Assembly: GCA_902790595.1 (NCBI GenBank)
Contig: CADASL010000009.1
Coordinates: forward strand, 25,229-89,228
Direction of reading: 5' to 3'
Length of the DNA stretch: 64,000 nucleotides
Source of the DNA: an uncultured Bacteroidales bacterium
Lineage (GTDB): Bacteria; Bacteroidota; Bacteroidia; Bacteroidales; SZUA-534
The translations under genes and the position numbers were made by a program. Every line of letters starts with the position of its first letter. Within the stretch, counting starts at the first letter, position 1. Below the pieces are notes generated by a model. That model saw only the letters and a program-made list of their open reading frames with translations, did no database searches and was not told where the DNA came from. This document shows positions 9,892 to 15,817 of the stretch, one piece after another.

Positions 9892-10887
9892 ATGAGCGAA
9901 ATTGTTGATATCAAAGAACTTAATGACCGCATACAACGCGAAAGTTCGTTTGTCGACCTAATCACTATGGAGATGAACAAGGTGATTGTGGGTCAAAAGC
10001 ATTTGACTGAATGTCTGCTGATTGGCTTGCTGTCCGATGGGCACATTCTTCTTGAGGGCCTTCCAGGATTGGCCAAGACATTGGCAATTAACACGTTGGC
10101 GCAGACAATCAATGCTGGGTTCAGCCGAATCCAGTTCACACCCGATTTGCTGCCTGCCGACGTCATTGGAACAATGATTTACAGCCCCAAAACCGAGGAG
10201 TTCAGCGTCAAGAAGGGCCCGATTTTCACCAACTTCGTGCTGGCCGATGAGATTAACCGTGCCCCCGCAAAGGTTCAGAGCGCACTGCTCGAGGCGATGC
10301 AGGAGAAGCAGGTCACCATTGGCGACACCACTTTCCAACTCGAAAAGCCGTTCCTGGTGATGGCCACACAAAACCCCATTGAGCAAGAGGGAACCTATCC
10401 GCTGCCCGAGGCGCAGATGGACCGTTTTATGCTCAAGGTGATTATCGGCTACCCGAAGAAGGAAGAAGAGCAACTCATTGTGCGTCAGAACATTCAGCGC
10501 ACCTTCCCGAAGGCCAACAAGATTCTCTCGACCGACGAGATTGTCAAGGCGCGCGAAGTTGTGAAAGACGTCTATATGGACGAGAAAATCGAACGTTATA
10601 TTGTTGATATTGTGTTCGCTACACGTTACCCCGACGAGTACAAACTCGAATATCTGAAAGAGATGATTGGCTTTGGCGGTTCGCCGCGTGCCAGCATTAG
10701 TCTGTCGAAAGCCGCAAAAGCCTACGCGTTCATTAAACGCCGCGGCTACGTGGTGCCCGAGGATGTGCGCGCCGTCTGCCACGATGTTCTGCGCCACCGT
10801 ATCGGTTTGACGTATCAGGCTGAAGCCGAAAACATTACAACCGAAGACATTATCAACGAGATATTGAATAAGGTGGAAGTACCTTAA
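9892..10887 (+). CDS. MoxR-family AAA+ ATPase (first gene of the Bat/aerotolerance cluster)
   Basis: 331 aa. Walker A-like 'GLPGLAKT', Walker B 'LADEINRA', and 'MATQNPIEQEGTYPLPEAQMDRF'. Confidence 0.9.
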   Translation: MSEIVDIKELNDRIQRESSFVDLITMEMNKVIVGQKHLTECLLIGLLSDGHILLEGLPGLAKTLAINTLAQTINAGFSRIQFTPDLLPADVIGTMIYSPKTEEFSVKKGPIFTNFVLADEINRAPAKVQSALLEAMQEKQVTIGDTTFQLEKPFLVMATQNPIEQEGTYPLPEAQMDRFMLKVIIGYPKKEEEQLIVRQNIQRTFPKANKILSTDEIVKAREVVKDVYMDEKIERYIVDIVFATRYPDEYKLEYLKEMIGFGGSPRASISLSKAAKAYAFIKRRGYVVPEDVRAVCHDVLRHRIGLTYQAEAENITTEDIINEILNKVEVP

Positions 10888-11028: not shown

Positions 11029-11904
11029 TTGGTTATGGAGACTTCGGAATTATTAAAAAAGGTACGGCACATTGAGATTAAGACACGCGGGCTGTCGAAC
11101 CAGATTTTTGCGGGCGAGTATCACAGCGCCTTCAAAGGTAAAGGTATGACATTCAGCGAGGTGCGCGAGTACAACTACGGCGATGCCATTCGCGACATTG
11201 ACTGGAACGTGACGGCGCGGCTCAACCACCCGTTTGTCAAGGTTTTTGAGGAGGAGCGCGAACTGACCGTGATGCTGCTGATTGATGTCAGCGGCTCGAA
11301 AAACTTCGGTACGCGCAGCCAGTACAAACTCGACCTGATGACCGAAATCGCCGCCGTGCTCTCGTTTTCGGCCATTAAGAACAACGATAAGATTGGCGTA
11401 ATAATGTTCAGCGACAAGGTGGAGAAGTTCATTCCGCCGCAGAAAGGCCGCAAGCACATTCTGCGCATTATCCAGGAACTGCTCAACTTTGAGCCGCAGA
11501 GCCGCCAGACCAATGTGGCAGCGGCTTTGGAGTACCTGACCAGCGCCATTAAGAAACGCTGCATTGCGTTTGTCATTTCCGACTTTATCGATGAGCGTTT
11601 CAACGACGCGCTCACCATTGCCAACCGCAAGCACGACCTTGTGGCTCTGCGCATTTACGACCAACGCGAGACCGAAATGCCGTCGATTGGACTTGTGCAG
11701 ATGACCGATGCCGAAACGGGCGCCACGCAATGGGTTGACACGTCGAGCCGCGCCGTGCGCGAGGCCTACAGCCATTGGTGGACGTCGCTCTCGCTCAACG
11801 TCGAGTCGGCGTTCAAGCGTAGCGGAGTTGATTTCGCAACCATTGCCACTGGCGACGACTACGTGAAGCCGCTTATCGGACTGTTCAAGCACCGAAGCGT
11901 GTGA
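11029..11904 (+). CDS. DUF58 domain protein (MoxR partner, VWA-like)
   Basis: 291 aa. 'SAFKGKGMTFSEVREYNYGDAIRDIDWNVTAR' is the DUF58 signature. Confidence 0.85.
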   Translation: MVMETSELLKKVRHIEIKTRGLSNQIFAGEYHSAFKGKGMTFSEVREYNYGDAIRDIDWNVTARLNHPFVKVFEEERELTVMLLIDVSGSKNFGTRSQYKLDLMTEIAAVLSFSAIKNNDKIGVIMFSDKVEKFIPPQKGRKHILRIIQELLNFEPQSRQTNVAAALEYLTSAIKKRCIAFVISDFIDERFNDALTIANRKHDLVALRIYDQRETEMPSIGLVQMTDAETGATQWVDTSSRAVREAYSHWWTSLSLNVESAFKRSGVDFATIATGDDYVKPLIGLFKHRSV

Positions 11905-13177: not shown

Positions 13178-14173
13178 ATGGAAAATATAACATTCAACAA
13201 TCCTAACCTGCTGTATCTGTTGCTTTTACTGATACCGATGGTGGGTTGGTACGTGTGGAAGCACCGCGATATGGACACGTCGGTGCGCCTGTCGACGCTC
13301 GACGGATTCGCCAAAGCGCCGCGTACCTATAAATGGTATCTGCGCCACGTGCCCTTCGCCCTGCGCACGCTTGCAATGGCCGTGCTGGTGGTGGCTCTGG
13401 CACGTCCGCAGTCAACCGACCGCTGGAGCAACACAACCACCGAGGGAATCGACATTGTGGTGGCGCTCGACATTTCGGGCAGTATGCTTGCCGAGGATTT
13501 CAAGCCCAACCGCCTTGAAGCCGCAAAAAGCGACGCCATAAAATTCATATCGGGCCGCCCCAACGACCGTATCGGTCTTGTGGTGTTCGCTGGCGAGAGT
13601 TTCACGCAGTGCCCGCTCACAACCGACCACGCCGTGCTTATCAATCTGATTAACGACGTGAAAAGCGGAATGATTGAAGACGGAACGGCCATTGGCGTGG
13701 GGCTGGCCAACGCAGTGAGCCGCCTGAAGGAATCAACGGCCAAAAGCAAGGTTGTGATTCTGATGACTGACGGTGTGAACAACCGAGGCGAGATTCCGCC
13801 GCTCACCGCCGCCGACATTGCGCAGGCAATGGGCGTCCGCGTTTACACCGTGGGCATTGGCACGCAAGGTCAGGCGCCATATCCGTTCACCGACGCCTTC
13901 GGCAACAAGCACTATCAGAATGTCGATGTTGAGATTGACGAGGAGGTGCTTTCGCAGATAGCCAACCAGACCGATGGCCGCTACTTCCGCGCCACCAGCA
14001 ACCGCCGTCTGCAGGAAGTTTACGAACAGATTGACCAACTCGAGAAATCGAAAATCGAGACCAAAGAATACAGCAAGAAGAACGAGGAGTATCTGCCGCT
14101 GCTGCTTGCAGGACTGACGCTGCTCGCCCTTGAACTGCTGATGCGCAACACCGTGATGCGGGGAGTGAGTTGA
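13178..14173 (+). CDS. batA: VWA-domain membrane protein BatA
   Basis: 331 aa. N-terminal TMs and the VWA MIDAS motif 'VALDISGSM'. The position is as expected in the cluster. Confidence 0.85.
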   Translation: MENITFNNPNLLYLLLLLIPMVGWYVWKHRDMDTSVRLSTLDGFAKAPRTYKWYLRHVPFALRTLAMAVLVVALARPQSTDRWSNTTTEGIDIVVALDISGSMLAEDFKPNRLEAAKSDAIKFISGRPNDRIGLVVFAGESFTQCPLTTDHAVLINLINDVKSGMIEDGTAIGVGLANAVSRLKESTAKSKVVILMTDGVNNRGEIPPLTAADIAQAMGVRVYTVGIGTQGQAPYPFTDAFGNKHYQNVDVEIDEEVLSQIANQTDGRYFRATSNRRLQEVYEQIDQLEKSKIETKEYSKKNEEYLPLLLAGLTLLALELLMRNTVMRGVS

Positions 14174-14325
14174 GGAAATGTAAAATTGAAAATGAAAAAT
14201 TAAAAATGATAGGTTGTTGAGATAGTTGAGAAGGTTTAGAAAGTTGAGTAAGTTTATGCTAAACAGCGAAGCGCTCAACATTCTCAACCGCGAAGCACTA
14301 AACTTAAAACTTCAGAACATAAGCA
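14174..14325 (+). repeat. Short-period tract (7- and 9-nt units) containing copy 1 (14280-14318) of a 39-bp direct repeat
   Basis: gaaaatg|aaaaatt|aaaaatg, then ttgagatag|ttgagaagg|tttagaaag|ttgagtaag. 'attctcaaccgcgaagcactaaacttaaaacttcagaac' recurs at 14715-14753. Confidence 0.85.
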
Positions 14326-14703
14326 ATGAAACTATTTGTTTTATATATAGCAATGATATTACTATTATCGAGTTGTGAAAACAACAATAATATTTTGGGT
14401 GTATATGAAGCCCGTTACAAAGAAAAAGGAACGTTACATTATGTTGAATTATTCCCTGATAATACATTTTGCCACGTATATGAAAAAAATGGTAATAGAA
14501 AAGAACATAGAAGCACTTTTCACTTTTATAAAATTAAAAATCATTATTCTATTGATTTTGACGAATGGAAAGATTTTGATGAAAGAACAATCGAATATAA
14601 GAAAAGATACCATTCTTCGGTTAGAAAGAATGATTTGCTAATTAATAAAGGTCAAATATTTTTTGATATGGATTTATATGAATTAAATTTTCAAAAAAAA
14701 TAG
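14326..14703 (+). CDS. Hypothetical AT-rich lipoprotein inserted between batA and batB
   Basis: 125 aa with lipobox 'LLLSSC'. G+C is 14/60 and 12/60 in two lines I counted, against 33/60 in batA. I recognise no family. Confidence 0.55.
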   Translation: MKLFVLYIAMILLLSSCENNNNILGVYEARYKEKGTLHYVELFPDNTFCHVYEKNGNRKEHRSTFHFYKIKNHYSIDFDEWKDFDERTIEYKKRYHSSVRKNDLLINKGQIFFDMDLYELNFQKK

Positions 14704-14714
14704 AAAATGCCATT

Positions 14715-14753
14715 ATTCTCAACCGCGAAGCACTAAACTTAAAACTTCAGAAC
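14715..14753 (+). repeat. Copy 2 of the 39-bp direct repeat flanking the inserted ORF
   Basis: Identical to 14280-14318. Confidence 0.9.
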
Positions 14754-14767
14754 TTAAAACTTTAAAA

Positions 14768-15817
14768 ATGTTCCAATTTGCTAATCCACAATATCTTTTG
14801 TTTCTGCTGCTGGTGCCAGCCCTGCTGCTGATTTTCATTGCAGGGCGGATGATGCGCCGCCGCGCGTTGCAGGCTTTTGGCGACAGCGACCTTGTCAATG
14901 GCCTGATGCCCGACACTTCGGCTTCGAGGCCGTGGGTGAAGATGGTGCTGGCGCTGTTGGCGCTCTCGCTGGTGGTGATTGCCGCCGCAGGACCGCAGTT
15001 CGGCACAAAGTTGCGCGAGGTGAAACGCACTGGAATTGAGTTGGTTGTGGCACTCGACGTGTCGAACAGTATGCTCGCCGAGGACATTACGCCCAACCGC
15101 CTTGAGAACGCCAAACGCGCCATTTCCAAGATGATTGACGGCCTGAAGGACGACAAACTGGCTCTCATTGTCTTTGCGGGCGACGCCTTTGTGCAACTGC
15201 CGATGACGAGCGACTACACCGCCGCCAAAATGTTCCTTTCGTCAATCAATCCGTCGCTGGTGACAAACCAGGGAACGGCCTTGGAGAAGGCTATAAATCT
15301 GGGAGTCAAGTCGTTCACGCCAGGCGACGACAAGAATAAGGCAATCGTCATTATCACCGACGGCGAGGACCACGACGGCGACCCAATCGCGGCAGCCACC
15401 AAAGCCAACGAGGCGGGAGTAACCATTCATATGGTGGGTATGGGACTGCCGCAAGGCGCACCAATCCCTACCGTCAACCGCAACGGCCAACGCGACTATC
15501 GCACTGATGCTCAAGGAAATGTAGTCATTTCGAAACTCGAGGAGACGACGCTGAAGCAGGTGGCAGCCGCGGGCGGCGGAAAATACATTCGCGCCAACAA
15601 CACCAAAAGCGGCCTGAGCGCGCTCTTCAGCGAACTGAACAATATGGAGAAGGTGGAGATGGAAGCGAAAATCTATTCGGAATATGAGGAACAGTACCAG
15701 TATTTTCTAGGCTTCGGACTGCTGATTCTGCTGGTTGAGGTGTTCATTCTCAATCGCCGCAACCGCCGCCTGAACGCTATCAATTTCTTCAAAAATTCAA
15801 AACTGACGCTTAAATAG
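14768..15817 (+). CDS. batB: VWA-domain membrane protein BatB
   Basis: 349 aa with the MIDAS motif 'VALDVSNSM' and a C-terminal TM. Confidence 0.85.
   Translation: MFQFANPQYLLFLLLVPALLLIFIAGRMMRRRALQAFGDSDLVNGLMPDTSASRPWVKMVLALLALSLVVIAAAGPQFGTKLREVKRTGIELVVALDVSNSMLAEDITPNRLENAKRAISKMIDGLKDDKLALIVFAGDAFVQLPMTSDYTAAKMFLSSINPSLVTNQGTALEKAINLGVKSFTPGDDKNKAIVIITDGEDHDGDPIAAATKANEAGVTIHMVGMGLPQGAPIPTVNRNGQRDYRTDAQGNVVISKLEETTLKQVAAAGGGKYIRANNTKSGLSALFSELNNMEKVEMEAKIYSEYEEQYQYFLGFGLLILLVEVFILNRRNRRLNAINFFKNSKLTLK

Follow-up and report, generated by a model that had tools for sequence, protein, structure and literature searches.

The bat (Bacteroides aerotolerance) operon encodes a MoxR ATPase, a DUF58 protein, the VWA proteins BatA and BatB, a TPR protein, BatD, and a TPR/SH3 protein. 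In an uncultured Bacteroidales bacterium, a short lipoprotein gene of low G+C content, designated P0001 here, lies inside this operon between batA and batB and is bracketed by two copies of a direct repeat. The locus raises the questions of where this gene came from, how it was joined to a housekeeping operon, and what it does for its host. We analyzed the window (the whole stretch of 64,000 nucleotides, located on contig C9 of the genome G000, whose assembly comprises 3.34 Mb in 13 contigs and is 98.6% complete) and compared it with congener genomes, which were representatives, one per species.

The inserted gene and its target spacer

A Pfam scan gave the gene order MoxR, DUF58, orf, BatA, BatB, TPR (batC), BatD, and TPR/SH3 (batE), which identifies the cluster as a Bat operon and confirms the order given in the original prediction. 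The features of the operon and of the insert are listed below with their positions in the window; G007 and G014 are congeners that carry and lack the gene, respectively.

9892–10887: MoxR gene (Pfam)
11029–11904: DUF58 gene (Pfam), followed by an ORF without a Pfam assignment
13178–14173, + strand: batA, 331 aa, with a BatA N-terminal domain and a VWA domain (Pfam PF07584 and PF00092)
14174–14279, + strand: 5' part of the batA–batB spacer, a member of a dispersed intergenic repeat family; its units run from A-rich heptamers through GTTGAG/GTTTAG units to the first complementary CTAAAC..GCGAAGC..CTCAAC unit
14280–14318, + strand: direct repeat copy 1, 39 bp and perfect, extending to 14322 with one mismatch; the part of the target left upstream, identical in G007
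14319–14714, + strand: inserted foreign segment of 396 bp, not in G014; G+C approximately 0.24; head and tail homologous to the flanks of toxin-linked homologues
14326–14703, + strand: P0001, 125-aa lipoprotein gene, putative orphan immunity gene; family of nine with toxin-linked homologues
14715–14753, + strand: direct repeat copy 2, extending to 14757 with one mismatch; contiguous with the native batB leader
14754–14767, + strand: native batB leader, the same in the G014 empty site
14768–15817, + strand: batB, 349 aa, with a BatA N-terminal domain and a VWA domain (Pfam)

The product of P0001 starts with MKLFVLYIAMILLLSSC, a signal peptide and lipobox ending in LLSSC that were read directly from the sequence. 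The lipobox agrees with the pattern [LVI][ASTVI][GAS]C, and its Cys residue was invariant across the family alignment. The predicted 125-aa lipoprotein ORF between batA and batB was thus confirmed, as was the perfect 39-bp direct repeat around it. The 39-mer occurred exactly twice in the window, with a period of 435 bp, and identity continued over four further bases with a single mismatch (ATAA versus TTAA), giving 43 bp in all. In 100 dinucleotide-preserving shuffles of the sequence, no 39-mer match arose, and in the whole 3.34-Mb genome the 39-mer was present at these two positions only. The segment between the repeats is almost the ORF alone, as its 396 bp consist of 7 nt, the ORF, and 11 nt. 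The G+C content was 0.22–0.27 over positions 14300–14700, versus 0.55–0.63 in batA and batB. This contrast had been noticed from the sequence and stands, but the average of the genome is 48.6%, not 55%.

No terminator-like site was found in positions 13900–15000, and P0001 has the same orientation as the operon; the gene is thus likely to be transcribed together with the bat genes. In the annotations of contigs L029–L031 and L073, a spurious ORF of 40–50 aa (window 14226–14378, + strand) was called across the repeat and the start of P0001. The corresponding spacer frame of G014 is in phase into the batB start codon.

The repeat is located in a heptamer-built spacer that belongs to a dispersed family, with approximately 30 copies in G000 at 72–87% identity and many more in the congeners. 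Because members of this family differ by 13–28%, the perfect 39-mer pair represents a local duplication rather than two independent repeat arrivals. The original prediction had given as a reason to abandon it that the 39-mer might be a common spacer repeat; in 3.34 Mb the 39-mer had two copies only. The proposal that the batA–batB spacer had been duplicated around the insert was correct in respect of an insertion with target duplication; it requires correction in that the whole spacer is a member of the dispersed family, and only the 39-mer is unique to the locus.

Across 12 species of the genus, the batA–batB spacer was hypervariable and fell into at least five types unrelated to one another. 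The spacer types of G006 and G011 were unrelated to that of G000, although batA and batB were 97–99% identical, which indicates that spacers are replaced far faster than genes diverge. The predicted hairpin of the spacer showed unexceptional stability (z = −1.2), and no argument was therefore drawn from spacer structure. The motif GCGAAGC was recurrent in the complementary arm of the spacer family. Regarding known elements, heptanucleotide intergenic arrays (STRR-like) and REP/BIME-like dispersed repeats resemble the present case in that the insertion target is one such hypervariable heptamer-built spacer, but the insert and its duplication are outside the repeat family, and comparable inserts elsewhere in G000 sit at the 3' ends of ordinary coding sequences. 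Coding DNA can enter the hypervariable heptamer spacers of these genomes.

An empty site with a single repeat copy, which the original prediction had suggested looking for in relatives, was found in G014. This genome shares the spacer type of G000, has one copy of the repeat followed by the batB leader known from G000, and lacks P0001. In G007, P0001 was present with the same two junctions as in G000. Four metagenome contigs (L029–L032) carried the G007 allele with the same junctions, and a 100-kb rumen scaffold (L073) was identical to the window across the 5,378 bases compared. An assembly artefact was ruled out by the presence of the same structure in G007, in the four contigs of its allele, and in L073. 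The locus is a true insertion polymorphism with target duplication.

The gene was found in 2 of 15 congeners. Elsewhere in the genus it was not found, except for one 27%-identical relative in G001, and the other congeners with a recovered batA–batB spacer had unrelated spacer types and no P0001. The gene is foreign, as originally proposed. In G007 and L029, the downstream repeat copy showed one substitution and one extra 7-nt unit, and thus the repeat is not perfect in every carrier; the single copy of G014 has that unit too. That the repeat is perfect in G000 but imperfect in G007 may be due to subsequent gene conversion or to slippage of units instead of to a recent origin.

The inserted gene's family and its toxin-like partner domain

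Homologues of P0001 are rare: the family comprised nine proteins (clusters) among 5.8 billion, at 58–81% identity. Neither Pfam nor NCBIfam contained a family for P0001 or for the C-terminal domain encoded upstream of its homologues, and a PDB profile search with the upstream domain was empty. An AlphaFold2 model of P0001 built from 10 sequences had a pLDDT of 65, and Foldseek against the PDB returned nothing at E ≤ 0.001; because of this low-confidence model and the empty search, we drew no structural inference. The family showed many invariant residues and dN/dS values of 0.1–0.45, corresponding to purifying selection, and by these measures P0001 is a real gene. All family copies were low in G+C, with GC3 values of 0.18–0.29.

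In L035–L040, L041, and L044, an overlap of 4 nt joins the start of the homologue to the stop of a co-oriented upstream ORF, the last approximately 210 aa of which were conserved at 53–61% identity. The same end motif precedes the homologue in L074. A full HMMER search with this upstream domain retrieved 124 proteins of 80–3534 aa, and in the long proteins (266–3534 aa) the domain was almost always located at the extreme C-terminus. Among the 14 long domain carriers scanned, three contained RHS repeats or SpvB plus FG-GAP, and 11 were without a recognizable N-terminal domain or Pfam match. Motifs of the domain included FSPDQT, FFIGGA, TSRxS.MLH, and NYxR (L035:2–838, L041:3–758, and L044:1–738). 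We consider this domain of approximately 210 aa a candidate new toxin domain, previously unnamed. The original prediction could name no family for the insert; the protein belongs to a tiny family that elsewhere follows this putative polymorphic-toxin C-terminal domain.

Because the homologues overlap the end of a C-terminal domain carried by proteins of 266–3534 aa, some with RHS or SpvB/FG-GAP parts, P0001 looks, from its gene neighborhood, like the immunity partner of a polymorphic toxin. Counting against this reading are the lack of a recognizable delivery domain in most long carriers and the absence of support from known immunity or toxin families, solved structures, or a confident model. 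The upstream domain had no match at E ≤ 1 in G000, whose assembly is nearly complete, and none in the 33 genomes of the taxonomic family in a query run without a positive control genome, so that the copy residing in the bat operon would be an orphan. Orphan homologues were also found in other settings: in a sheep-rumen Bacteroidales MAG, the gene follows serC/serA-like genes and a terminator (L033 and L045), in L034 it follows an hsdR-like gene, and in L042 its neighbor is a Sel1 gene.

Orphan immunity genes are believed to influence which members of gut communities survive toxin-mediated warfare, and those of Bacteroidales are known mainly from recombinase-associated arrays and mobile islands. 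In gut Bacteroidales, they have been described from AID-1 islands and rAID arrays (bioRxiv 10.1101/471110; PMC12247911), the latter consisting of a tyrosine recombinase and co-oriented short low-GC genes with conserved intergenic motifs (PMC12247911). P0001 resembles these genes in that it is short and low in G+C, its homologues partner candidate polymorphic-toxin C-terminal domains, its sequence has diverged from the toxin-linked copies, and G000 is without the toxin. In contrast to them, P0001 is solitary and belongs to no array; a tyrosine recombinase next to it, a conserved intergenic motif, and a mobile element are all absent. It is located within a housekeeping operon and bordered on both sides by a copied part of that operon's own spacer. 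Moreover, its host belongs to a rumen lineage, and its role in protection is putative, being read from the genes. The locus represents a resolved rumen example of a different route, in which the donor type, the empty site, both junctions, the spread, and an allele swap are readable from sequence. From this case, a toxin-like C-terminal domain without an earlier name and the family of its partner are also defined, both open to direct test.

Junctions, entry, and spread of the gene

We then compared the ends of the insert with the flanks of toxin-linked and other homologues. The head of the insert, ATAAGCA (the 7 nt before ATG), corresponds in the alignment to the donor toxin end with the overlapping start, compared with ATAAGTG in L034. 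The tail, comprising the 11 nt after the stop codon, reads AAAATGCC[A/C]TT, and its counterpart in L041 is AGAATGCCCTT. The donor-type flank of L042 continues with TTCTTCTCAA, and TTCTCAA is common to this flank and the first bases of the 39-mer, a microhomology that was read after the fact from relatives of 79–81% identity and not from the true donor. The left junction showed homology of 0–3 nt only. When metagenomes were scanned for the right junction, the one match, located in an unrelated groundwater contig, was due to chance.

No inverted ends of the insert and no second insert copy were found in G000. This genome encodes only two tyrosine recombinases (PF00589), on C1 and C11 and not on the contig of the window; no recombinase is located near the insert, as observed in the original prediction. 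Ku was not found in G000, and classical NHEJ was thus ruled out.

We incline, by somewhat more than an even chance, to the explanation that P0001 is a horizontally acquired, solitary orphan immunity gene that entered the bat spacer by illegitimate recombination and later spread by homologous recombination. The home context of the gene would be directly behind, and overlapping, the C-terminal domain of polymorphic toxins (Rhs-type and other), and the orphan gene would most likely protect its rumen Bacteroidales host against a toxin that the host itself does not make. The gene would have entered the batA–batB spacer nearly as a bare ORF, co-oriented with the operon, by illegitimate recombination involving neither a transposase nor an integrase. 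Little or no homology would have been used at the left junction, and the right junction would have formed through the 7-nt microhomology TTCTCAA between the donor 3' flank and a target point 39 nt upstream. Because this right join would re-enter the target 39 nt upstream of the left join, 39 bp of the target would come to stand on both sides. The whole spacer-plus-gene allele would then have moved from one congeneric species to another through homologous recombination within batA and batB, another allele would have replaced the central part of the gene in one lineage, and the repeats would also permit precise loss of the gene. The event may have been a replicative template switch, end-joining, or homology-facilitated recombination. 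Overall, the mechanism resembles ordinary illegitimate recombination with subsequent homologous spread and not a new cassette system.

Small variable segments flanked by direct repeats and ascribed to illegitimate recombination have been described in E. coli, S. aureus, and S. pyogenes (PMC2884548). Homology-facilitated and double illegitimate recombination in the uptake of foreign DNA (de Vries and Wackernagel 2002; Hulter and Wackernagel 2008; both cited in PMC8116780) and short-patch double illegitimate recombination (bioRxiv 10.1101/2023.11.22.568220) have been described, and transformable bacteria are known to integrate foreign DNA by microhomology (references in PMC8116780; bioRxiv 10.1101/2023.11.22.568220). 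The present locus resembles these processes in its independence of recombinases, its microhomology of 0–7 nt at the junctions, its arbitrary insert length, and the coexistence of occupied and empty alleles in related genomes. It differs from them in showing a clean duplication of 39 bp (28–132 bp at other sites) rather than a deletion or substitution, and in a cargo trimmed almost to the ORF.

Rhs/CDI loci gain new CT/immunity modules by recombination, after which part of the upstream gene is found again on the far side of the insert. G000 likewise has an orphan Rhs-tip cassette with a 53-bp flanking repeat; at the bat locus, however, the upstream gene is batA with its spacer and not a toxin core, and the immunity-like gene alone was inserted. 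Here, one such gene joined a housekeeping operon with no mobile-element machinery involved, and the operon may have provided its expression.

An alternative that we consider unlikely is integration at the repeat itself, in which a circle carrying the gene and one copy of the 39-mer would integrate in Campbell fashion by a site-specific recombinase (integron/rAID) or by homologous recombination. Such an event leaves direct repeats around a promoter-less single ORF, and occupied and empty alleles both exist; moreover, the G001 islet contains approximately 38 nt of native leader repeated before a cargo gene, and Bacteroidales are known to have rAID arrays, in which orphan immunity genes are accompanied by conserved intergenic motifs (PMC12247911). 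However, the other pairs of cassette and 39-mer that the original prediction had suggested searching for did not appear, as the 39-mer was absent from every other context of P0001 homologues looked at. Additionally, the related spacers in the genome are only 72–87% identical, neither of the two tyrosine recombinases is on the window's contig, there is no array at the locus, and the duplicated flanks of other inserts are unrelated sequences of 28–132 bp. Once formed, the structure could spread by integration, but the observed transfer between species has its crossovers in batA and batB rather than in the repeat, and integration of this kind accounts for spread and not for the first event.

Homologous exchange of the locus was visible in the identities between genomes. 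Over the neighboring 20 kb, G000 was 92–98% identical to G014, G006, and G011 and mostly 76–91% identical to G007. The batA gene of G000 was 97–100% identical to those of G006, G011, and G014 versus 80–92% for G007, and its batB gene was 95–99% identical to those of G006 and G011 versus 81–94% for G007. In the spacer and the first 155 nt of the ORF, by contrast, G000 and G007 were 97–99% identical. Because the spacer and the 5' end of the ORF are nearly identical to those of G007 while batA and batB are like those of G006 and G011, it follows that species have exchanged the spacer-plus-cassette allele through homologous recombination, one crossover falling at the extreme end of batA and the other close to the batB start.

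The central 160 nt of the ORF were only 60–66% identical between G000 and G007. This central part of G000 was 81–95% identical to L041/L042, and that of G007 was closest to L074 (78–88%). The shared 5' end and the identical junctions argue for a single original insertion, after which the central part was swapped for another allele in one lineage, leaving a mosaic ORF.

The same comparisons bear on whether the gene is an old resident, ancestral to the genus, whose flanking spacers were homogenized by gene conversion and which relatives lost through the repeats. The single-copy site of G014 is the exact product of a deletion between the repeats and could equally have arisen by such precise deletion; the two carriers, G000 and G007, are not closest to each other across the neighboring 20 kb, and the repeat has diverged in G007. 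We nevertheless regard this history as quite improbable. The gene was found in 2 of 15 congeners, and in the close relatives G006 and G011, whose spacers are unrelated, neither the gene nor the repeat has left a trace. The G+C content of the insert is 24% versus 0.55–0.63 in the flanks, and homologues occur in at least four unrelated contexts, including the toxin-linked one. Furthermore, the identity of 95–99% between G000 and G007 in the spacer and 5' ORF, compared with 80–94% in the flanks, indicates recent exchange and not vertical descent.

We give equally little credence to the view that P0001, rather than conferring immunity, encodes an accessory lipoprotein of the Bat complex or some niche factor unrelated to it, and that its position in the operon is functional. 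The co-orientation of the gene within the operon, its maintenance by purifying selection, and the lack of an immunity family matching P0001 are consistent with this view; however, most bat operons of the genus are without the gene, and homologues are located away from bat genes (after the toxin-like domain, after serA-like genes and hsdR, and next to a Sel1 gene). Finally, a non-autonomous MITE-like transposable element with an unusually long target-site duplication is extremely improbable and was rejected, because the insert, although short and flanked by direct repeats, has no terminal inverted repeats, is present as a single copy in the genome, and has boundaries coinciding with the ends of homology to the gene's native flanks, and because its repeat of 39–43 bp and those of similar inserts (28–132 bp) are not the short duplications of fixed length that a transposase makes, as the original prediction had also argued.

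Similar inserts elsewhere in the genome

To place the bat insert in the context of its genome, G000 was searched for exact direct repeats bracketing low-GC DNA, and three further cases were checked against the congeners.

C1:289687–290898 (L049): 132-bp repeat with one mismatch; 192-aa secreted protein; empty in G011, G010, G006, G003, and G002, occupied in G014
C3:127879–129213 (L047): 53-bp repeat; 390-aa protein; empty in G011 and G002
C10:145566–146566 (L048): 28-bp repeat; 283-aa protein; empty in G014

At all three sites, the duplicated piece was the 3' end of the upstream gene, the cargo was co-oriented with that gene, and the proximal junction was located 0–3 nt past its stop codon. 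The cargo proteins had no Pfam match. The original idea of a cassette capture specific for the heptamer spacer was not supported by these sites, at which 28–132 bp of ordinary 3' coding sequence are duplicated.

These cases suggested to us a stereotyped, recombinase-independent capture of single foreign genes in the genus, in which the cargo would be co-oriented, 28–132 bp of the target would be copied to the far side, and no host gene would be damaged; we consider this generalization doubtful. If it were true as a dedicated process (e.g., template switching at stalled forks or termination sites) rather than reflecting the survivors of random illegitimate events, it would constitute an undescribed route by which accessory genes, including orphan immunity genes, are wired into operons. 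In a crude genome-wide screen, 3–6% of low-GC islets had flanking repeats versus 2–4% of random controls, although the screen missed two of the verified cases owing to the islet borders as drawn. With no general enrichment of flanking repeats, insertion with duplication is a recurrent minority mode and not the rule.

Several further islets were observed in the course of these comparisons. In G014 (C55; L054:1800–2973), a different low-GC cargo of 1.09 kb, encoding two secreted proteins of 162 and 147 aa, was located at the same nucleotide as the C3 insert of G000, with a repeat of approximately 34 bp; either this site is a hot spot for insertions, or cargo is replaced there. The orphan Rhs-tip cassette of G000 (C1:253189–255738; L050) is a low-GC segment of 2.5 kb containing a Rhs-tip-like ORF (DHLGS...YYPFGLRH) and two small lipoprotein-like ORFs. 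Within its perfect 53-bp flanking repeat lies a terminator hairpin, and the repeat continues in diverged form into the 3' end of the neighboring gene. In G001 (C25; L027:500–1580), the 27%-identical relative of P0001 is located in a two-gene low-GC islet, in which approximately 38 nt of the leader of the native downstream gene are repeated directly before the second cargo gene. This repeated leader holds a TAGGTTTG box, which resembles the Bacteroidetes −7 promoter element.
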